Assembly (NCBI GenBank): GCA_964427275.1
Contig: CAYRSR010000001.1
Coordinates: 20,394-84,393, forward strand
Reading direction: 5' to 3'
Source of the DNA: an uncultured Candidatus Saccharibacteria bacterium
GTDB lineage: Bacteria; Patescibacteriota; Minisyncoccia; UBA6257; CAYRSR01
Length of the DNA: 64,000 nucleotides
Shown: piece by piece, positions 11,084-59,440 of the stretch
How positions within the stretch are numbered: position 1 is the first letter of the stretch
Layout: every line of letters begins with the position of its first letter
Notes under the pieces: model-generated
Seen by the model: the letters and a program-made list of their open reading frames with translations, nothing else
The model's database searches: none
Told to the model about the DNA's origin: nothing
Position numbers and translations under genes: made by a program

Positions 11084-12352
11084 TTAGCCTGCAATTAGTT
11101 TAGTAAAAATTTTCTCATCTTTAAATGGCCCAACTATTGCCAGTCTTGACTCTTTTTTACGGAAAATTTGGTTAGCAAGTTTTCTAATCTGCTCCGAGTT
11201 AACTTTTTCTATCTCTCTAGCAACTTGTTCTGGTGATTTAATTTTATTTTCCATCAGTTCAGTTCGAGCATAAAATCCAGCCCAATCATTAGACCTTTCC
11301 AACCTTAAGTACAGGTTTCCAATTAAGTAATTTTTTACTTTTTGAAGTTCACGTTCAGATACTCTATACTTCTTAATTCGATCAATTTCTTTAACTATTG
11401 CTAAAATTACCCTTTCTATTCTTTTATTATCCACCCCAGCTGAAATTGTGAACATTCCATGCTTTGAAAACAATGAAACGCTAGAAGAAACATAATAGGC
11501 TGCTCCCATTTTTTCTCTAACTACCTGAAACAATCTAGAACTCATTCCTGCACCTAAAACACCAGACAAAACCTCCAAAATATAGCGCCGGCGATCAAAT
11601 AGACTAAAAGCTGGATAACCAAAGACCAGGTGGCTTTGATGAGTAGGTCTAGTTTCTATCTTCACTCTAGACTTTGGTATTAAATTTGAGTGTAGTCGGT
11701 AAGAAAATCGCCTGGACTTAACTTTTCGAAGACTAAACTTGCTTTTAATCTGAATTAAAATATCTTCACTTAAAGCACCGGCTACAGCTACTACTGTTTT
11801 TTGAGGAATATAATTTCTCTTTCTAAATTCTAAAAGCTCGTTTTGGCTAATTTTTTCAACCGTTTCCTTAAATCCAATTACTGGATAGCCAATAGGTTGA
11901 TCCCCATACATCAAGGATAAAAACACATCGTCAACCTTATATTCCGGCATATCCTCATACATGTTAATTTCTTCAATTATCACTTTTCTTTCTTTTTCCA
12001 AGTCTGACTTTGAAAAGACCGGATTTAAATACAACTCAGAAATTAATTCCAGGGCTCTGGCTAAAAACTTGTTCTGAACCTTAATCCAGTAGCCAGTATA
12101 TTCCTCACTGGTAAAGGCATTGTAAGCTGCTCCAATTTTCTCAAATTCCAAAGCTAGTTTTAATGGACTAGGATACTTTTTTGTTCCTTTAAAGGCTAGA
12201 TGTTCCAAAAAATGAGAAATTCCAGCGTTACTCTTTCTCTCTAAAAACGAGCCAACTTTTACCAGTATTAAGATGGTAGAAGATAAGCTATCTTTTATTG
12301 GTACAAGTATAATTCTTAATCTATTATTTAAAGTAATCTTTTTATAAGTCAT
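11084..12352 (-). CDS. M16-family zinc peptidase (insulinase-like)
   Basis: Inverted zinc-binding motif HFLEH near the N-terminus. 422 aa. Confidence 0.8.
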   Translation of the reverse strand: MTYKKITLNNRLRIILVPIKDSLSSTILILVKVGSFLERKSNAGISHFLEHLAFKGTKKYPSPLKLALEFEKIGAAYNAFTSEEYTGYWIKVQNKFLARALELISELYLNPVFSKSDLEKERKVIIEEINMYEDMPEYKVDDVFLSLMYGDQPIGYPVIGFKETVEKISQNELLEFRKRNYIPQKTVVAVAGALSEDILIQIKSKFSLRKVKSRRFSYRLHSNLIPKSRVKIETRPTHQSHLVFGYPAFSLFDRRRYILEVLSGVLGAGMSSRLFQVVREKMGAAYYVSSSVSLFSKHGMFTISAGVDNKRIERVILAIVKEIDRIKKYRVSERELQKVKNYLIGNLYLRLERSNDWAGFYARTELMENKIKSPEQVAREIEKVNSEQIRKLANQIFRKKESRLAIVGPFKDEKIFTKLIAG

Positions 12353-12524
12353 AATATAAAAAATTTAAAATTAAAAAATCAAAATGCTATTAATTAATTT
12401 TCAATTATCAATTTTCAATTTTCAACATCCAACTTCTAACTTCTAACTTCTATTTGTAAATTCGTTGATTATTAGCAATTCGTAGATTGACATAACATTT
12501 GTAGGTTGGCATTATATCCATTAT
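12353..12524. repeat. dispersed intergenic repeat element, copy A (heptamer tract CAACWTC x4 followed by conserved TATTTGTAAATTCGTTGATTATTAGCAATTCGTAGATTG)
   Basis: Near-identical sequence recurs at 13770-13941 and 50658-50887, and in inverted orientation at 59195-59290. Confidence 0.8.
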
Positions 12525-13769: not shown

Positions 13770-13941
13770 AGTTAATTTAAAATTAAAAAATCAAAAATCA
13801 AAATGCTATTAATCAATTTTTAATTTTCATTGAATTTTCAATTTTCAACATCCAACTTCTAACTTTTAACTTTTATTTGTAAATTCGTTGATTATTAGCA
13901 ATTTGTAGATTGGCATCATATATTTGCATTTTACATTTTTC
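13770..13941. repeat. dispersed intergenic repeat element, copy B
   Basis: About 90% identical to 12353-12524 over more than 110 bp, including the AAAAATCAAAATGCTATTAAT motif and the heptamer tract. Confidence 0.8.
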
Positions 13942-27556: not shown

Positions 27557-27600
27557 AACACCAACCACTTAAGTACTTAACTACTCAAGTACTTAAGTAG
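27557..27600. promoter_or_regulatory. 13-bp-stem hairpin / palindromic operator-like site between the Wzz-like gene and the downstream membrane gene
   Basis: AGTACTTAACTAC-tcaagtacttaa-GTAGTTAAGTACT, a perfect inverted repeat. The half-site AAGTACTT recurs at about 26870. Confidence 0.35.
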
Positions 27601-27741
27601 TTAAGTACTCAATCAAAACTCATAAAAACATCACATACAAATAAAAATAAGTAGGCGATAAAATAAGAATAAGAAAGTAGATGATTTACAATATTACCAA
27701 CACTTAGAGAAGATTATAAGTAATTACTTGGTAGAAATTTT

Positions 27742-33648: not shown

Positions 33649-35231
33649 AAGTTCTTATTTGTCAACTCAGAGTAAACTTTTAAAAGTTTCTTGGATTCGT
33701 TTTCCCAGTTGTAAATCTTAGCTGCTTTTTTTGCATTCTCTTTCATTTGTCGATATCTTTTTGGATTAGATAGAATAAAATCAATAGCTCTGGCAATATC
33801 CTCTGGGTCTTCTGGATTAAAAACTGCGCCAAGTTTATGCCCAAGTACAATCTTTCTTAATTCTGGAAAATCACTTGCAGCTACTGGTAAGCCAGCCATT
33901 AAATATTCAAACATTTTATTTGGAAGCCCGTAGTAATTGTTTAAGCTAACTTTCCGAAAAGGAATTACACCTAAATGTGCTTCTTTTGTAACATAGATTA
34001 GCTTATCAGGGGAAACTGGAGGAAGAAATATTACTTTATCATGTAATTCCTGATCAGTTTCAACAAAACTTTTAAGTTCACTTTCTAGTTTTCCCCAGCC
34101 AATCAATACCAGAATAATTTGTGAAAGAGAAACAAGTTTAATAGCTTTTATTAAATTAAATAAGCCTCGCCCAGGAGCGAATCCTCCTTGATAAATAACT
34201 ACTTTGAACTTATTGCTTACCGGGATAAATTTTCGGTTATAATGCTGTTGTTTGTTTTTTTTAGCAGCAACCGGACAATTCATAACTATAGCCGAAATAT
34301 TTAGGTTATATCTTTTTTCTAGTTGACCTGCAATTGAATGGTTAACTGTAATGATTCTGTCAGATTTACCTATAAGATTTCTTTCTATTATTCGTGCTAG
34401 AAACCTCTCCAGCCAATTTAGGCCAGTCTTTTCTGTATAGAGTTCATGTGAATCATATACCAGTTTTCCTCCTAATTTTTTCTTAGCCCAAAAAGCTATC
34501 GGTAAAGTATTTAAGTCATGAGCATGATAAATATCTGCTGGTTCTTGTTCTATAATCTTAAAACTTCGCTGGTAATAATCTAAAAACGACAAAGGTCTGT
34601 GGAAAATCATTAAAAAATTTCGAAGTAACCCATACAAAAAGAAATAGGTATGTTTTGCTGGATAATAAAATCCCCAGTAGAAAATTTTTTTTATACCTTT
34701 GTAGAAAAAGAAGCAGATACATTTTGCTGGATAATAAAATCCCCAGTAGAAAATTTTTTTTATACCTTTGTAGAAGTAATAACCTAATACTAAAGCCCAG
34801 CCTAAAGATAAAAAGTAACCCGGACAAGTTTTTAAAGATTTTCTAACATACTCTCTAAGTCCTTTTTCTTTAATAACCTGATTAAGTTTCTGAAATATTA
34901 ATCGCAGCTTGCCTACTGCTTTTCTTGTAACTGATTGAACTTTTACCGGTTGACGTTTCAACCGTGAAATAGAGCAATTTAAAAAACTCAAAAATTTTTT
35001 AGTAGAAGAAAGGATTCCTTTTAAGATTTTATAGTGAAGTGGGTTTTTAACCACTCGAATAATCCTAAACCCTTCCCTTTTTTCGTAAGGTTCTGTAGTT
35101 TTATCAAGCACGGCAATAATTCTTACATCGTATCCAGCTTCCGTTAAAGTCTTTGCTTCTTTTAAAACTCTAGCATCATGCTTACAGTTATTATATACAA
35201 ACATGCAGACTTTAATGTTTCTGAATGTCAT
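33645..35231 (-). CDS. GT4-family (group 1) glycosyltransferase
   Basis: C-terminal GT-B motif (GLPNKMFEYLMAGLPVAASDFPELRKIV). 528 aa. Contains an internal 69-bp tandem duplication. Confidence 0.75.
   Translation of the reverse strand: MTFRNIKVCMFVYNNCKHDARVLKEAKTLTEAGYDVRIIAVLDKTTEPYEKREGFRIIRVVKNPLHYKILKGILSSTKKFLSFLNCSISRLKRQPVKVQSVTRKAVGKLRLIFQKLNQVIKEKGLREYVRKSLKTCPGYFLSLGWALVLGYYFYKGIKKIFYWGFYYPAKCICFFFYKGIKKIFYWGFYYPAKHTYFFLYGLLRNFLMIFHRPLSFLDYYQRSFKIIEQEPADIYHAHDLNTLPIAFWAKKKLGGKLVYDSHELYTEKTGLNWLERFLARIIERNLIGKSDRIITVNHSIAGQLEKRYNLNISAIVMNCPVAAKKNKQQHYNRKFIPVSNKFKVVIYQGGFAPGRGLFNLIKAIKLVSLSQIILVLIGWGKLESELKSFVETDQELHDKVIFLPPVSPDKLIYVTKEAHLGVIPFRKVSLNNYYGLPNKMFEYLMAGLPVAASDFPELRKIVLGHKLGAVFNPEDPEDIARAIDFILSNPKRYRQMKENAKKAAKIYNWENESKKLLKVYSELTNKNL
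34653..34790. repeat. in-frame 69-bp tandem duplication (2 copies) inside the GT4 gene
   Basis: TTTTGCTGGATAATAAAATCCCCAGTAGAAAATTTTTTTTATACCTTTGTAGAA... repeated head-to-tail. Encodes FYKGIKKIFYWGFYYPAK(C/H) twice. Confidence 0.7.
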
Positions 35232-42299: not shown

Positions 42300-43367
42300 T
42301 CATTGTCTGAGTTCTTCAAACCATTGGTGAACCATTTTGAGACCTTCTTTGAGATCAACTTTTGATTGCCAGCCAAGTAATTTTTTAGCCAGAGTTATAT
42401 CAGCTCGAGTATGATAAACATCACCATCTCTTGGTGGTAAATATTGTTTTTTGCCACCAACTAAATCGGCTAGGTAATTTATTGAGTAGGATTTTTCACT
42501 GCTCATGTTAATTACTTCTCCCCCTTTTAGCTTCTCACTTTCCATTGCTTTAATAGTTGCATCAATTGCATCGTCGACATAACAAAATCCTCTGGTCTGC
42601 TTACCATCACCATAAATAGTTAATGGCTTACCTTCAATTTTTTGTTTTAAAAATTTTCCAATTACCAAACTGTATTCGGAATCAAAGTCAATTCTGGGCC
42701 CATATATGTTGAAGTATCGTAAAGAAATAATTGGTGTCCTATAAAGATTGGTAAATAGCTTAGCAAATTGTTCCCCAACTAATTTCTGTAAGCCGTAAGG
42801 ACTAACAGGCTCAGGGGTCATATCTTCTTTGAAAGGTAGTTTTTCTTGATTACCATAAACAGCCGAAGAAGAAGCAAAAACAACTCTCTTTACTCTACTC
42901 TCAGCTGAAGCCTTAAATACACTGATTGTTCCAAGAATATTAACCTTAGAAGTCCTGACAGGATCCTCAACTGAAAGAGGCACTCTTGGAATAGCTGCTA
43001 AATGAAAAACATAATCAACTTTTTGAAAAAGTGGTTTAATCTTATCAAAATTACAAATATCAAGTTCATAAAATTCAGCTTTAGGATTTAAATTCTCCCT
43101 TTTACCAGTGGATAGATCATCAATTACAATTACTTTATAGTTTTCTTTAATTAATCTATCTACTAAATGACTTCCAATAAAACCAGCACCACCAGTAACT
43201 AAGATTGTTTGATGTTTGAGGTTAGATGTTCGATGTTGGAGATTGGAAGTTGGAAGTTGGAGGTTGGAGGTTGGAGGTTGGAAGTTGGAGGTTTGAGGTT
43301 GGAAGTTTGACGTTTGATGTTGGATATTAGATGTTAGATGTTGGAGGTTTGATGTTTGATGTTTCAT
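42300..43367 (-). CDS. NAD-dependent epimerase/dehydratase (UDP-sugar 4-epimerase / UXS-like) with heptamer-repeat-encoded N-terminal tail
   Basis: TGGAGFIGSHL Rossmann motif and YxxxK. The first 54 codons, (H/Q)QTSN(L/F)Q repeats, are encoded by a (AACWTCY)n heptamer tract. Confidence 0.8.
   Translation of the reverse strand: MKHQTSNLQHLTSNIQHQTSNFQPQTSNFQPPTSNLQLPTSNLQHRTSNLKHQTILVTGGAGFIGSHLVDRLIKENYKVIVIDDLSTGKRENLNPKAEFYELDICNFDKIKPLFQKVDYVFHLAAIPRVPLSVEDPVRTSKVNILGTISVFKASAESRVKRVVFASSSAVYGNQEKLPFKEDMTPEPVSPYGLQKLVGEQFAKLFTNLYRTPIISLRYFNIYGPRIDFDSEYSLVIGKFLKQKIEGKPLTIYGDGKQTRGFCYVDDAIDATIKAMESEKLKGGEVINMSSEKSYSINYLADLVGGKKQYLPPRDGDVYHTRADITLAKKLLGWQSKVDLKEGLKMVHQWFEELRQ
43205..43364. 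repeat. tandem heptanucleotide repeat tract, about 23 units of GADGTTD (plus strand), within the 5' coding end of the epimerase gene
   Basis: Read directly: gatgttt gaggtta gatgttc gatgttg gagattg gaagttg gaagttg gaggttg gaggttg gaggttg gaagttg gaggttt gaggttg gaagttt gacgttt gatgttg gatatta gatgtta gatgttg gaggttt gatgttt gatgttt. Confidence 0.85.
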
Positions 43368-43753
43368 TGTTTTTTTAGATATCTTTTTAAACTTAATAAC
43401 TTGAAAAATAATTCATCGATTCTGGTGATGATTTGATTAAAGGTTATTTTAGATATGTATTTTAAATTCTCGGCAATAATACAACAAGCCTTTACCTCTA
43501 TCAAAGAACCTAATGCAATATCCACAAACCTTGCAAATTCTTTCTTGTTTCGCGCACTTCCTTCTGTAATATTCAATATCACTGAAATTGCCGCTCGTTT
43601 CAATTGAGCACCCAAAATGAATGTTTCTTCCTTAGGAAATTTTAAACTAAGATTGTAAATTTCCTTAAGTAATTCATTTGCTAACTTATAAACTTCTAAA
43701 TTTCCAAAATTATACTTCTGATACATAATTCCAACATCCAACATATCCAACAT
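43364..43753 (-). CDS. four-helix-bundle protein (23S rRNA intervening-sequence protein family, TIGR02436-like)
   Basis: 129 aa. YKLANELLKEIYNLSLKFPKEE...QLKRAAISVILNITEGSAR...EFARFVDIALGSLIEV is typical of the family. Confidence 0.7.
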   Translation of the reverse strand: MLDMLDVGIMYQKYNFGNLEVYKLANELLKEIYNLSLKFPKEETFILGAQLKRAAISVILNITEGSARNKKEFARFVDIALGSLIEVKACCIIAENLKYISKITFNQIITRIDELFFKLLSLKRYLKKQ

Positions 43754-43770
43754 CTAACATCTAACATCAT
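43729..43770. repeat. heptamer tract (CCAACAT/ATCTAAC x about 6), inverted orientation relative to 43205-43364
   Basis: ccaacat ccaacat atccaac atctaac atctaac atc spans the start codon of the four-helix-bundle gene and the stop of the upstream YqeY gene. Confidence 0.7.
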
Positions 43771-44276
43771 TTAGCTTTTTTCAGGAGTAAGTCTTTGACT
43801 ATTTTTGCGATTAATTGAGGTTCAGCTTTTCCTTTGAATTTAGACATCATCTCCTTCATTACTTTTCCCATATCAGCTATAGATTTTGCTTTGAGTTTTT
43901 CTATAACTTGCTGGGCTGACTTTTCAATTTCTGTAGCAGAAGCTTGCTTGGGTAAATACTTTTTCAGAATCTCTATCTCGGCCTGTTCTTTTTTAGCTAG
44001 TTCTTCTCTCCCTCCTTTTCGATACAGTTTAATTGAATCAGTTCGCTTTTTTATTTCCGAATAAATCAAGTCAATTATTTCCTGATCAGTTAAACTACTT
44101 TGCTTAGTTAGTTCTGATTCAGTTATTGATTTACTTTGTTTAAGAATTCTTACTCTTTTTTCCTTTTCACGATTTAAAATAGATGTTTTTAAAAGCCTCA
44201 GCACCGAAAGAACTTCGGTTTGTTTATTTTTTAAAGCTAATTTAAAATCCCGTTCAATTTCTTGCTTAAGAGACAT
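43767..44276 (-). CDS. GatB/YqeY domain protein
   Basis: MSLKQEIERDFKLALKNKQTEVLSVLRLLKTSI start is typical of YqeY. The ATG at 44276 is preferred over the GTG at 44306. Confidence 0.7.
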   Translation of the reverse strand: MSLKQEIERDFKLALKNKQTEVLSVLRLLKTSILNREKEKRVRILKQSKSITESELTKQSSLTDQEIIDLIYSEIKKRTDSIKLYRKGGREELAKKEQAEIEILKKYLPKQASATEIEKSAQQVIEKLKAKSIADMGKVMKEMMSKFKGKAEPQLIAKIVKDLLLKKAK

Positions 44277-44281
44277 AATAA

Positions 44282-45277
44282 CTACTTTGTTTTTTCTAAA
44301 TACCACTTTAAAGTTTTTTCTAATCCTTCATCCAGACTGTACTTTGGTTCAAATTCAAGCTCTCTTTTAGCTTTAGAGTAATCTAGAGCAACTCGGCCAA
44401 CCTCACCTCTTTTTTCTGGAACATATATTTTGGCTACATCTATCCTGGTTAACTTTTTAATCTTATCAAATAAGCTATTTATGCTAGTCTCTACACCAGT
44501 CCCAATATTAAATATTCCAGTTTTATCTTTCTTTAAAGCTAAAATTGCAGCATCTATCGCATCGTCTATGTAAATAAAATCTCTAGTTTGAGTTCCATCT
44601 CCAATAATAGTAGGCTGCTCACCAGCTAGCATCTTTTTAAAAAATACCGAAATTACTCCAGCTTCAGCAGAAATTCCCTGTCTTGGTCCATAGACATTTG
44701 AGTAACGCAAGGAAATACTCGGTACCTGATATACTTCGCGATAATAGTCCAAGTACTTTTCTACTGCTAGCTTAGCCACTACACATGGAGCAATAGGTCT
44801 TTCTGGAGAAGTTTCAGGAGTAGGAATGACATCTGCTTCTCCATAAATTGCTCCACCAGTAGAGAAAAATATAAACTTAGAATCAGTAATTTCCACCGGC
44901 AAGAAATGTAAAAAATTTTTTAACACATTTAAAGAGCCCATAATATTTATCCGGGCATCCCAGTCAGGATTATCTAGCGACTTTCTTATATCCACCTGAG
45001 CAGCTAGATGGAACACTGTCTGAGGTCTTTCTTTTTTAAATATTTTGGAAATTTTAGGTGAGCAAATATCTACTTTATAAAAACTTGCTTTTTTGTTCAC
45101 CAGCTCTTTTCTTCCGGTAGAGAGATTATCAATAACTACTACCTTAAAGCCAAGTTCTACTAATCTATCCACCAGATGAGAACCAATAAATCCAGCTCCA
45201 CCAGTAACTAAGATTGTTTGAGGTTTGAGGTTAGACGTTGGATGTTGGATATTAGAGGTTTGATGTTTTTCCAGCAT
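44282..45277 (-). CDS. NAD-dependent epimerase/dehydratase (paralog) with short heptamer-repeat-encoded N-terminus
   Basis: MLEKHQTSNIQHPTSNLKPQT followed by ILVTGGAGFIGSHLVDRL. The ATG at 45277 is preferred over the ORF-track TTG at 45331. Confidence 0.8.
   Translation of the reverse strand: MLEKHQTSNIQHPTSNLKPQTILVTGGAGFIGSHLVDRLVELGFKVVVIDNLSTGRKELVNKKASFYKVDICSPKISKIFKKERPQTVFHLAAQVDIRKSLDNPDWDARINIMGSLNVLKNFLHFLPVEITDSKFIFFSTGGAIYGEADVIPTPETSPERPIAPCVVAKLAVEKYLDYYREVYQVPSISLRYSNVYGPRQGISAEAGVISVFFKKMLAGEQPTIIGDGTQTRDFIYIDDAIDAAILALKKDKTGIFNIGTGVETSINSLFDKIKKLTRIDVAKIYVPEKRGEVGRVALDYSKAKRELEFEPKYSLDEGLEKTLKWYLEKTK
45215..45268. repeat. heptamer tract (about 8 units: gtttgag gtttgag gttagac gttggat gttggat attagag gtttgat) in the 5' coding end of the second epimerase gene
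   Basis: Same unit family and the same adjoining 22-nt sequence (CCACCAGTAACTAAGATTGTTT) as at 43183-43206. Confidence 0.8.
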
Positions 45278-45409
45278 TGAGATGATTATAACATATCTTA
45301 AAAGTAGTTTGCACCACTTGACAAATTGCAAAAATGTTAGTATAATTAGGTCAGCTTAAGGGAATTAACAAAAAAATAAGGTTGGTAGAATTGAAAAAGG
45401 AGGTTCGAA

Positions 45410-50657: not shown

Positions 50658-50887
50658 AATAGCAAATTCAAAATTTAAAAATTAAATTTTAAAATGATAA
50701 TTTAAAATTCAAAATTAGCAAATTTTAAAATTACACCAACCATAATAAAATTTAAAATTTAAATATTAAAATGCGATTAATCAATTTTCAACTATCAATT
50801 TCTAATTTTCATTGAATTTTCAATTTTCAACTTCCAACTTCTAACTTCTAACTTTTATTTGTAAACTGTCATTTTTCATTTTGATTT
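50658..50887. repeat. dispersed intergenic repeat element, copy D
   Basis: Contains GCGATTAATCAATTTTCAACTATCAATTTCTAATTTTCATTGAATTTTCAATTTTCAACTTCCAACTTCTAACTTCTAACTTTTATTTGTAAAC, matching copies A and B. Confidence 0.75.
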
Positions 50888-53387: not shown

Positions 53388-53902
53388 AAGTTAATAAATT
53401 TAATTTTAAAGTTTTTAAGCACTGCTAAATCCTTTTTTGGTTGCCCAAAGGAGTTTTGTTAGTTTTTAATTGATCCACGGACAGGTTCCCCTACCCGTGC
53501 CTTGTTACGACTTCATCCTGATCACCGAGCTGATTCTAGGTCCTTAAACAGGAACTTCGAACCCTCCCGGCTCTCCTGATGTGACGGGCGGTGAGTACAG
53601 GACTCGAGAACGTATTCACCGCGACATAGCTGATTCGCGATTACTAGCGATTCCGGCTTCATGAGGGCGAATTGCAGCCCTCAATCCGAACTGAGACTAC
53701 TTTTAAGAGATTCGCTCCGCCTTACGGCTTAGCAGCTCTTTATAGTAGCCATTGTAGCATGAGTGCAGCCCAGGGCATCAGAGGGCCATGCTGACTTGGC
53801 GTCATCCCCACCTTCCTCCCCAAAAATTGAGGCAGTTCCGCATGACACATATAACATGCAGTAGGGGTTGCGCTCGTTACCTCACTTAAGAGAACACCTC
53901 AA

Positions 53903-53934
<32 letters not shown>

Positions 53935-54175
53935 CTCCAATGTCCTTGAAGGAAGCCTCACCTTTCGGTAAGGTTTCATTGGAGTGTCAAGCCCTGGTGA
54001 GGTTCTTCGGTTATTGACGAATTAAGCCTCATGCTCCACCGCTTGTGCGAGTCCCCGTCTATTCCTTTGAGTTTTAACCTTGCGGTCGTACTCCCCAGGC
54101 GGTCTGCTTAACGCGTTAGCTACGCCACCCAGAGGGTCGATACTCTAGACAGCAAGCAGACATCGTTTAGGGCCT

Positions 54176-54209
<34 letters not shown>

Positions 54210-54441
54210 AGGCTTTCGGGTCTCAGAGTCAGGAGAGCCCCAGCTATTTGCCTTCGCCTTTGGTATTCCGCACGATATCAACGGATTTCACCCCTACACC
54301 GTGCGTTCTAAAAGCCTCTGGCTCCCTCTAGTTCGGTAGTTTCCGAGGCATTTCCCTGGTTGGGCCAGGGGCTTTAACCTCAGACTTACCGAACCTCCTA
54401 CACCCGCTTTACGCCCAGTAAATCCGGATAACGCTTAGGGT

Positions 54442-54476
<35 letters not shown>

Positions 54477-54889
54477 AACCCTTTATTCTCCACTTACCAT
54501 CAACATCTACTAAAAGGTAGATGCTTTTTCAGTGGAAAAAGCGGTTTACACTCCGCAGAGCTTCATCCCGCACGCGGCGTCGCTGGATCAGGCTTTCGCC
54601 CATTGTCCAAAATTCTCGACTGCTGCCTCCCGTAGGAGTAGGGCCCGTGTCTCAGTGCCCTTGTTGGAGAACAACCTCTCAGTCCTCCTACCCGTCATAG
54701 CCAAGGTGAGCCATTACCCCACCTTCTAGCTGATAGGCCGCAGGCCATTCCCATTCCGGCATACCATAAGATACACCTTTAATGACATCACTAAAAGTGT
54801 GTCATACTATCGGGTATTAGCCACCTTTTCAGATGGTTATCCCCGTGAATGGGGTATGTACCTACGTGTTACTAACCCGTTTGCCGCTC

Positions 54890-55210
54890 CCAGCCCCACT
54901 TTTTGGATTCAAATAAAGCATTTCTTAATTCTCTTGAAAAGTTCCTGTTTTGCACTCCCATAATGTTTTAATCTCTTTTCTCTTCTCTTCGCATCTTTTT
55001 TATTTCTATAAGCTTCGGCATAAATTAAAACCCACTTTCCATCTCTTCGGTAAGTGGCTTTTGTTTTTCCTTGATTATGATCTGTCAACCTCTTTTGAAG
55101 ATTTTTAGTTAAACCAATGTAAACTTGTTTTGTGACATTATGCTGAATTAGATAAACATACCACCACATAACCTTATTATGACTATTGAATCCAAAAAGT
55201 GAGGCTGGGC
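54890..55210 (-). other. intervening/insertion sequence within 16S helix 6, closed by a 23-bp stem and carrying an endonuclease ORF
   Basis: The exon sequence GCATGCAAGTCGTGCGC is interrupted by CCAGCCTCACTTTTTGGATTCAA...[ORF]...TTGAATCCAAAAAGTGGGGCTGG and then resumes at GAGCGGCAAACGGGTTAGTAACACGTAGG. The flanks are reverse complements, allowing one U-G. Confidence 0.6.
54909..55169 (-). CDS. GIY-YIG nuclease-superfamily protein (homing-endonuclease-like) encoded inside the 16S insertion
   Basis: YVYLIQHNVTKQVYIGLTKNLQKRLTDHNQGKTKATYRRDGKWVLIYAEAY matches the GIY-(x10)-YIG...R...E core. The ATG at 55169 has an AAGG SD. The ORF-track 5' extension to 55223 lies in the stem. Confidence 0.7.
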   Translation of the reverse strand: MWWYVYLIQHNVTKQVYIGLTKNLQKRLTDHNQGKTKATYRRDGKWVLIYAEAYRNKKDAKRREKRLKHYGSAKQELFKRIKKCFI

Positions 55211-55330
55211 GCACGACTTGCATGCCTTATCCACGCCGCCAGCGTTCATCCTGAGCCAAGATCAAACTCTCGTTTTGGGCAACCAAAAAAGAATTCAACC
55301 TGTTTAACTTTTAAAGGTACAACCACGTTA

Positions 55331-59119: not shown

Positions 59120-59194
59120 TGGCTTATCTTCCTCTCATAATTATAATTTAATTATAGTTATAATATTGCAACTGAAATAAATTATCAACCAATT

Positions 59195-59290
59195 TACAAA
59201 ATATGATGCCAATCTACGAATTGCTAATTATCAACGAATTTACGGATAAAAGTTGGAAGTTGGAAGATAGAAGATGACAAATATCTAAAA
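59195..59290. repeat. dispersed intergenic repeat element, copy E (inverted orientation)
   Basis: Its reverse complement, ...CCAACTTCCAACTTTTATCCGTAAATTCGTTGATAATTAGCAATTCGTAGATTGGCATCATAT, matches the conserved core of copies A, B and D. Confidence 0.75.
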
Positions 59291-59395: not shown

Positions 59396-59440
59396 AAAAA
59401 AATTACGTAAAAAATTACGTAATTTTTTACGTAATTTTTT
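59396..59440. promoter_or_regulatory. 45-bp perfect palindrome containing three TTACGTAA boxes at 12-bp spacing
   Basis: AAAAAAATTACGTAAAAAATTACGTAATTTTTTACGTAATTTTTT, with boxes at 59403, 59415 and 59427. Confidence 0.5.

Follow-up and report, generated by a model that had tools for sequence, protein, structure and literature searches.

Intervening sequences (IVSs) that carry an open reading frame (ORF) for an S23p protein have been treated as a curiosity of 23S rRNA. The IVS of Coxiella burnetii lies in the 23S rRNA, carries an S23p ORF, is excised by RNase III and is regarded as selfish by the authors who described it (PMC4990558). Two to three tandem heptamers (GACAGAT) lie directly upstream of its S23p ATG; their number varies by strain, and the 5' RNase III site is at the first repeat (PMC4990558). 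A comparable arrangement was found in a glycan-biosynthesis operon of a Patescibacteria (candidate phyla radiation, CPR) genome, within a 64,000-nt stretch (hereafter the window) of contig CAYRSR010000001.1 (positions 20,394 to 84,393; assembly GCA_964427275.1) from an uncultured Candidatus Saccharibacteria bacterium. Here a gene of the PF05635 four-helix-bundle family (23S rRNA intervening-sequence protein, or S23p) is enclosed by two heptamer arrays, one of which forms the beginning of the next gene, a short-chain dehydrogenase/reductase (SDR) epimerase referred to below as paralog 1.

Several other systems bear on this locus. Intergenic heptamer repeats are known in Cyanobacteria as short tandemly repeated repetitive (STRR) sequences. 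Rickettsia palindromic elements (RPEs), from work attributed to Ogata and co-workers in 2000, are reportedly selfish and are said to lie in frame within protein genes, being translated without destroying them. We know of no role for PF05635 proteins outside diversity-generating retroelements (DGRs). Avd, a protein of these retroelements, acts on RNA encoded beside its own gene (PMC10053308). Heptamer direct repeats of the TAACTGA type occur in 2 to >40 copies in the Shine-Dalgarno-poor genomes of Beggiatoaceae, Cyanobacteria and Bacteroidetes, mostly ending a few nt upstream of gene starts; the study that described them drew no link to PF05635 genes or inverted pairs, and the repeats were left unexplained (PMC4679880). 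In Haemophilus influenzae, 7-bp repeats control hmw1A (PMC8262952).

The heptamer array at the start of paralog 1 is probably the 3' inverted-repeat arm of an IVS-like cassette built around the PF05635 gene, between yqeY and the SDR epimerase. All parts of the cassette lie on the minus strand. Upstream is the yqeY-like gene (43767-44276), whose stop codon shares nucleotides with the initial unit of the 5' arm (43730-43768). The 5' arm contains five heptamers of complementary polarity (GATGTTA GATGTTA GATGTTG GAT-AT-GTTG GATGTTG GA), and runs from within the yqeY TGA stop to a point 3 nt short of the four-helix ATG. In a related strain, L020 (94.7% DNA identity to the window over 5.3 kb), this arm also had five units but lacked the 2-nt insertion. 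The four-helix gene (43364-43726), which the cassette carries as cargo, encodes a protein of 120 amino acids (aa) with a pI of 9.5, which matched Pfam 23S_rRNA_IVP (E = 7e-30) and PDB 2gsc (E = 5e-15), with a bAvd-like match (2e-4) under the cut-off. Its TGA (43366-43364) and the epimerase ATG (43367-43365) form an ATGA overlap (43364-43367), a putative termination-reinitiation point, and the 3' arm (43205-43363) follows with 22.6 units of NAACNTC.

The 5' and 3' arms were inverted repeats of one another (pairs I1-I12), with up to 23 nt at 96% complementarity. The predicted RNA duplex of the arms reached -48.0 kcal/mol vs. -26.2 +/- 3.7 for shuffles (z = -5.9), and the minimum free energy fold of the 591-nt region paired the arms around the four-helix ORF (z = -3.5). 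The cassette does not lie in a 23S rRNA gene; the sole rRNA in the window is the 16S gene at 53463-55277. A sequence-only reading of this stretch, made by a model without database searches, had described an in-frame heptamer array, and this stood; the reading had missed the context of the array as a cassette arm beside the upstream PF05635 gene.

Tandem Repeats Finder placed the array at window positions 43206-43363 with a period of 7, 22.6 copies, 82% matches and 0% indels, in agreement with the about 23 tandem heptamers first noted at 43205-43364. It was also scored at period 21 (7.5 copies, score 169 vs. 134 for period 7). Reading the sense (minus) strand onward from the ATG at 43367 gave 22 units of NAACNTC, then the junction unit AAACAAT and then CTTAGTT. 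The three-unit pattern AACNTCNAACNTCNAACNTC, with no more than one mismatch, had 31 matches in the window vs. 0.00 expected from 100 dinucleotide-preserving shuffles, and 20 of the 31 were inside the paralog-1 array. The longest perfect run was three units (CAACCTC x3). Similarity at a lag of three units was slightly raised (p = 0.046), and growth of the array in 21-nt steps has marginal support. Three assemblies from different assemblers contained the same array sequence; because these assemblies (including L001 and L002) were 100% identical in DNA over 8.6-20 kb, they represent the same population and are uninformative on variation.

The paralog-1 ORF (42300-43367) encodes 355 aa and starts with MKHQTSNLQHLTSNIQHQTSNFQPQTSNFQPPTSNLQLPTSNLQHRTSNLKHQT-ILVTGGAGFIGSHL. 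Residues 2-54, encoded by the 3' arm, form a polar tail rich in Q/T/S/N/H/P/L that was predicted to be disordered, and the peptide across the tail/core junction is HQTILVTGGAGFIGSHLVDR. The Pfam Epimerase domain (NAD-dependent epimerase/dehydratase, SDR, PF01370) began at residue 55 (E = 3e-65; model positions 1-239 of 240). The earlier description of the array as the in-frame N-terminal 54 residues of a sugar epimerase holds. The SDR epimerase/dehydratase core (42300-43204) was intact according to Pfam and to an alignment with 19 homologues, in which GGAGFIG (G59-G65) and YxxxK (Y191, K195) were invariant columns. In the AlphaFold model the predicted local distance difference test (pLDDT) score was 85-96 for the core and about 30 for residues 1-49, which had no secondary structure; the Rossmann strand started at residue 54.

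The native start codon of paralog 1 is gone and has been replaced. Its 119 closest homologues were 69-80% identical and 300-329 aa long (the nearest ones 80%, 302-309 aa), and all 119 began within a few residues of the Rossmann strand, mostly with M[RK]ILVTGG. DNA homology with the nearest relative began at the Ile codon. In a scan of genome contigs with the epimerase core, the nearest relative was 80% identical and lay on a 2.7-kb contig without synteny. The closest homologues on L014-L018 had a different gene context, and no cassette was found there. These contigs (e.g., L015 8734-8776) contained another heptamer array (AAGCGCA AAGCGCA AAACTCA ...), which was intergenic and had been called as a 35-aa ORF.

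The 3' arm of paralog 1 is probably translated. The alternative is that the start has been misannotated and that the array serves only as a 5' leader or regulatory RNA, with the epimerase either translated from a non-canonical codon near ILVTGG or present as an insertion-inactivated pseudogene. Heptamer arrays just upstream of starts are indeed known as untranslated elements (TAACTGA repeats, PMC4679880), and in the related cassette L077#2 the downstream gene still has its own ATG, so that the 3' arm there is not translated. Start sites are also difficult to call here because Shine-Dalgarno-like motifs are rare, being found upstream of 2 of the 26 window genes checked. Against this stands the array region itself: no in-frame ATG, GTG or TTG occurred between the ATG at 43367 and the Rossmann motif (ILVTGG), only one of the three frames was open, and this was the correct one. 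The frame was kept in six lineages. Stop codons are selected against in translated arms: a unit starting with T yields a TAA stop when translated, and TAA-containing units made up 6/45 units in translated arms vs. 14/22 in untranslated arms (Fisher p = 5e-5). The substitution pattern in the tail of paralog 2 (below) was coding-like, resembling that of the gene body, and the enzyme core was intact with all catalytic motifs. An untranslated leader is therefore very improbable.

Two further candidates were set aside. The missing Shine-Dalgarno motif before the epimerase ATG was dropped as support for translational coupling, given the 2/26 frequency in the window. Genetic code 25 was rejected, as RecA, the epimerases and other genes were full length under table 11 with TGA as stop.

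Paralog 2 (ORF 44282-45277, minus strand) carried the shorter tract and the same junction that had been reported for it. A solo 3'-type array (45215-45277), consisting of ATG CTG GAA and seven units, encodes a 20-residue tail on an SDR epimerase core (44282-45214) 42% identical to paralog 1. Tandem Repeats Finder gave 7.6 units at 45216-45268, and the AAACAATCTTAGTTACTGGTGG junction was as in paralog 1. A 22-nt identity between the paralogs had been taken as a sign that the repeat and the 5' gene segment moved by recombination. It is weak evidence for such a move: AACAATCTTAGTTACNGGTGG is ordinary (K)TILVTGG coding sequence found in 38 unrelated metagenome contigs, so that the shared 22 nt represent a common coding solution. 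The metagenome scan with the array/gene junction returned 38 ordinary epimerases starting with MKTILVTGG and no strain variant of the locus.

Compared with L020, the paralog-2 tail kept its unit count and had nine nucleotide substitutions, mostly synonymous. The ratio of synonymous to non-synonymous codon differences was 6:2 in the tail and 34:13 in the gene body, and the tail evolved 2.6 times faster than the gene body. In L059 and L088, paralog-2-type epimerases (55-58% identical) had a full cassette upstream. Additionally, a minus-strand TGTTATAAT box resembling a -10 element ended 7 nt before the paralog-2 ATG, within a divergent promoter region (45284-45346) whose plus strand contained a perfect TTGACA-17-TATAAT. 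This distance of only 7 nt suggests that an operon mRNA starting at paralog 2 would be leaderless or near-leaderless.

The same layout and the AACNTC unit family were found in other CPR contigs, in which the four-helix homologues were 66-80% identical and the neighbouring genes differed: HTH_17, NTP-transferase, DegT, and polysaccharide synthase. In total, six CPR lineages, including the window, had a 3' arm in frame into the downstream gene from an ATG overlapping or abutting the cassette stop. The downstream gene was a paralog-2-type epimerase in L059-68 (tail of 14 aa) and in L088-90 (35 aa), and a third epimerase subfamily in L069-71 and L075-76 (21 aa). It was a GT4 glycosyltransferase in L072-74, where the tail was in frame and an internal ATG was also present, and an ABC-2 permease in L077#1, which was read through an 8-mer arm. 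The ATGA overlap was also present in L069, L072, L077#1 and L088, while L059 had a 1-nt spacer (TAGAATG). The three epimerase subfamilies were mutually 37-58% identical, which points to separate fusions, and at least five gene families lay downstream of this cassette family. The CPR cassette L059#2 contained TAACTGA-like units.

The architecture recurs in three phyla. More distant CPR PF05635 cassettes had the arm units TTCAAGCA, GTCATNN and CATGNAA. Arm units in cyanobacterial plasmids were GGGAGTA/TCCCTAC, GGGTGTA/CTACACC, CAGGAGT and ATCTCCT, arranged as (GGGAGTA)8 ... (TCCCTAC)5 in Nostoc edaphicum and as (GGGTGTA)4 ... (CTACACC)4 in Calothrix; the unit in Gemmatirosa (a Gemmatimonadota plasmid) was CTCCTGCC. 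In the tblastn search of plasmids, PF05635 genes were found mainly in Cyanobacteria. Tandem 7-8-nt arrays adjoined 18 loci in a small sample of 19 distinct PF05635 loci (Patescibacteria, Cyanobacteria, and the Gemmatimonadota plasmid), and 15 of the 19 had significantly complementary inverted arms.

On the cyanobacterial and Gemmatirosa plasmids (L091-L100), PF05635 genes with flanking heptamer or octamer arrays were located between cas6 and cas4, between cas10 and cmr3, and between ribonucleotide reductase subunit genes. Direct GCYAAAA units, 13 and 10 in number, flanked the PF05635 gene of Pseudanabaena. In a Thermoanaerobaculia metagenome-assembled genome with 64% GC (L011 3935-4082), a pair of inverted (GAAACCA)n arrays lay just upstream of a DegT aminotransferase gene; the 17-nt loop between the arrays held no ORF. 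The pair resembles cassette arms that lack their cargo, an 'empty' version in a distant phylum.

The array had been put forward as a contingency (phase-variable) locus, in which slipped-strand mispairing by one or two units would toggle the epimerase and three-unit steps would alter the tail, giving surface-glycan heterogeneity. As in simple sequence repeat (SSR) contingency loci, the tract is coding, with a unit length not divisible by 3; the gene also belongs to a glycan-biosynthesis cluster. The raised similarity at a lag of three units (p = 0.046) and the higher score at period 21 than at period 7 also agree with such a switch. Slippage of units was in fact seen between near-identical strains in related arrays: the untranslated 3' arms of L077#2 and L078 had three and two units, respectively, and the untranslated 5' arms of L075 and L069 had four and two units. 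Tail length additionally varied between lineages (14, 20, 21, 35, and 54 residues).

However, all unit-number differences between close strains were in untranslated arms. No variation was found in the translated arms of 23 contigs (L059-68, n = 10; L069-76, n = 5; L072-74, n = 3; L088-90, n = 3; and the window vs. L020), and no out-of-frame allele of a translated arm was seen in any lineage at the contig level, whereas classical contingency genes are often OFF in sequenced strains. Comparison with related loci, which the sequence-only reading had named as a check, thus gave the same translated unit counts within each contig set and between the window and L020, the latter at 5% divergence. The array is also not near-perfect: unit matches were 82%, and no perfect run exceeded three units. 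The protein cluster of the tailed paralog 1 had a single member and no length variant, and a place as cassette arm accounts for the array structurally. With an impure array and no variation in translated arms, phase variation at this locus is unsupported and we consider it quite improbable; unit slippage stands for the related untranslated arms, with no sign at the contig level of its use as an on/off switch in the coding arms.

Another possibility is that the tail is adaptive, a Q/T/S/N-rich disordered extension recruited for tethering, partner binding, solubility or turnover control, whose expansion to 54 residues was selected. A search with the 54-aa tail bears on this. A word-indexed protein search returned no matches, and phmmer returned 522 cluster representatives at E <= 1e-3, many of them short ORFs merely translating similar arrays. 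The tail matches (P0171-P0320) contained TSNIQHP/TSNIEHR-type peptides, i.e., translated AACATCN-type arrays, and many of the short ORFs are probably spurious. Real proteins with the tail-type peptide in frame included HypF (P0312, with no Met between tail and domain) and NlpC/P60 (P0261). The same peptide was thus carried by unrelated proteins (epimerases, GT4 and ABC-2 permease; HypF and NlpC/P60 in other organisms), which fits a by-product of a DNA element better than a specific function. Furthermore, the 119 closest homologues all do without a tail, the tail changes at 2.6 times the rate of the gene body, and the AlphaFold model gave it no structure.

The equal synonymous to non-synonymous ratios of the paralog-2 tail and gene body (6:2 vs. 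34:13), the third-position bias in the array substitutions (5/7, p = 0.045) and the maintenance of the frame in several lineages would be expected of a selected tail, and in Borg elements, tandem repeats are reported to give rise to disordered regions under selection (PMC9879509). Overall, we regard an adaptive tail as unlikely.

In the reading that we prefer, that of an IVS-like cassette, ribosomes finishing the four-helix ORF would restart at the ATGA overlap and read through the 3' arm. The enzyme would thereby gain a disordered tail of 52 residues, which it would tolerate without needing it. Arm length would change by unit slippage or unequal exchange and, where the arm is translated, only in-frame, stop-free versions would survive; such survival would produce differences in tail length between lineages together with the lack of variation within populations. 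In the RNA, the two arms could base-pair around the four-helix ORF, which would resemble the 23S rRNA IVS excised by RNase III. Processing of the RNase III type would sever the epimerase coding region from its ATG and lower downstream expression, and by analogy the cassette probably lowers or conditions the expression of the downstream gene.

The cassette may also act like a mobile or recently spreading unit. The contigs L059-L068 came from 10 samples; among these 10 contigs, the cassette block (positions -70 to +415, counted from the four-helix ATG) was 99.8% identical, while the flanking HTH_17 and epimerase genes were 86-90% identical, which suggests recent spread or gene conversion of the cassette. 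Several points weigh against this account of the locus as a whole. The identity within L059-L068 was measured among contigs selected for an identical protein, although synonymous sites could have varied and did not. No transposase or recombinase was seen adjoining the cassettes. The 3' arm has 22.6 units against five in the 5' arm, an excess beyond the need of a pure stem function. The tail of paralog 2 occurs without a cassette, as no four-helix gene lies upstream of it. The CPR cassette L082#1 had no arms, and the arrays of Pseudanabaena and Gemmatirosa were direct, not inverted. The small set of 19 PF05635 loci had no control set of other small genes. Finally, three steps are our inference: that the tail is translated, that translation is coupled at the ATGA overlap, and that RNase III processes the transcript.

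The heptamer family was also present in intergenic repeats, as the first reading had said; the window holds four such copies (12423-12450, 13846-13873, 50828-50855, and 59249-59276). An intergenic repeat of about 150 nt was located at 12353-12524, 13770-13941 and 50740-50887 (polarity of minus-strand genes) and at 59150-59270 (inverted). Its copies contained (GAAGTTA)2-3 GATGTTG (AAAATTG)n, with the polarity and family of the cassette 5' arm and without a four-helix gene, and the genes downstream included an M16 peptidase and a class II aminoacyl-tRNA synthetase. Genome-wide, the period-7 signal in 5' leaders was weak (0.345 vs. 0.29-0.33 for other periods), and three genes only (starts at 12352, 16760, and 50657) had clear A/T-rich period-7 leaders (CATTTTG / ATTTTTA) directly before the ATG.

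Other repeats and insertions were observed in the window. The 16S rRNA gene (53463-55277, minus strand) was 1815 nt long vs. 1533 nt for the Rfam model and contained an insertion ORF (54909-55223, minus strand) with a GIY-YIG endonuclease domain (E = 7e-18); this resembles the introns or insertions that have been reported for rRNA genes of CPR bacteria. A glycosyltransferase ORF contained a 69-nt tandem duplication (34636-34775) that was 92% identical. Palindromic AAAAAATTACGT repeats were located at 59397-59440 and five ACTTAAGT units at 27567-27612.

The ORF with complementary heptamer flanks therefore resides in ordinary operons of at least three phyla, exactly at gene boundaries. One arm can be absorbed as coding sequence by the next gene, and the gene survives, which offers a concrete route from selfish DNA to disordered N-terminal extensions and, possibly, a post-transcriptional brake on CPR glycan genes. 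For annotation, the locus is a warning that repeat-encoded N-termini beside genes named "four helix bundle protein" are probably real features and not contingency switches. A broader idea is that PF05635 proteins and heptamer arrays form one widespread two-part system, in which the protein would recognise its own flanking arrays and the dispersed copies upstream of other genes (such as the four in the window) and control RNA processing or translation, while cassettes would spread by insertion at gene starts, supplying a start codon and an in-frame arm. We hold this idea to be doubtful. If true, it would give the S23p/IVS family a function and explain the STRR and TAACTGA repeats of Cyanobacteria, Bacteroidetes and Beggiatoaceae. 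The locus offers a possible connection, open to test, of PF05635 proteins with heptamer repeats that lack an explanation in Cyanobacteria and elsewhere.

Among the known systems, SSR contingency loci such as the 7-bp repeats of hmw1A in Haemophilus influenzae share a heptanucleotide tract whose unit changes would alter a surface-related gene, and slippage-type changes of unit number are likewise seen in arrays related to the cassette. The cassette differs from them in its degenerate units, in the lack of variation or OFF alleles in its translated tracts, and in being part of a larger inverted-repeat element. The TAACTGA-type repeats have an intergenic position just before the start, which is matched by L077#2 and by the cassette's 5' arm, whose end lies 3 nt from the four-helix ATG; the paralog-1 array, in contrast, lies inside an ORF and has the unit NAACNTC. 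Like an RPE, the cassette is a selfish-looking palindromic element that is probably translated in frame without loss of the gene; unlike the cassette, which replaces a gene start, RPEs insert within genes and are not known to carry a gene or to form tandem arrays.

Avd belongs to the same protein superfamily as the four-helix cargo, whose bAvd Pfam match was under the cut-off. Pfam annotation of all called genes in the 20 kb around the four-helix gene (L001, window 32300-52579) contained no reverse transcriptase, and no template/variable repeat pair is present there. A DGR role for the four-helix gene was rejected, as no reverse transcriptase was nearby; its neighbours were glycan-pathway genes.

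The cassette differs from the IVSs with an S23p ORF (Coxiella burnetii, Leptospira) in its location, which is between protein genes of an mRNA operon and not in helix 25 or 45 of 23S rRNA, and in its arms, which are long arrays (5 and 22.6 units); its 3' arm probably supplies the translated N-terminus of the gene that follows. Excision by RNase III is known for the Coxiella IVS and would apply to the cassette by analogy. Both share the PF05635 cargo and complementary flanks able to form a long stem. As with the Coxiella heptamers, the 5' arm of the cassette lies directly before the four-helix ATG, and close strains in the cassette family differ in unit number, although only in untranslated arms. 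Of the systems known, the Coxiella 23S rRNA IVS stands nearest to the cassette, which is probably a variant of the IVS/S23p elements.

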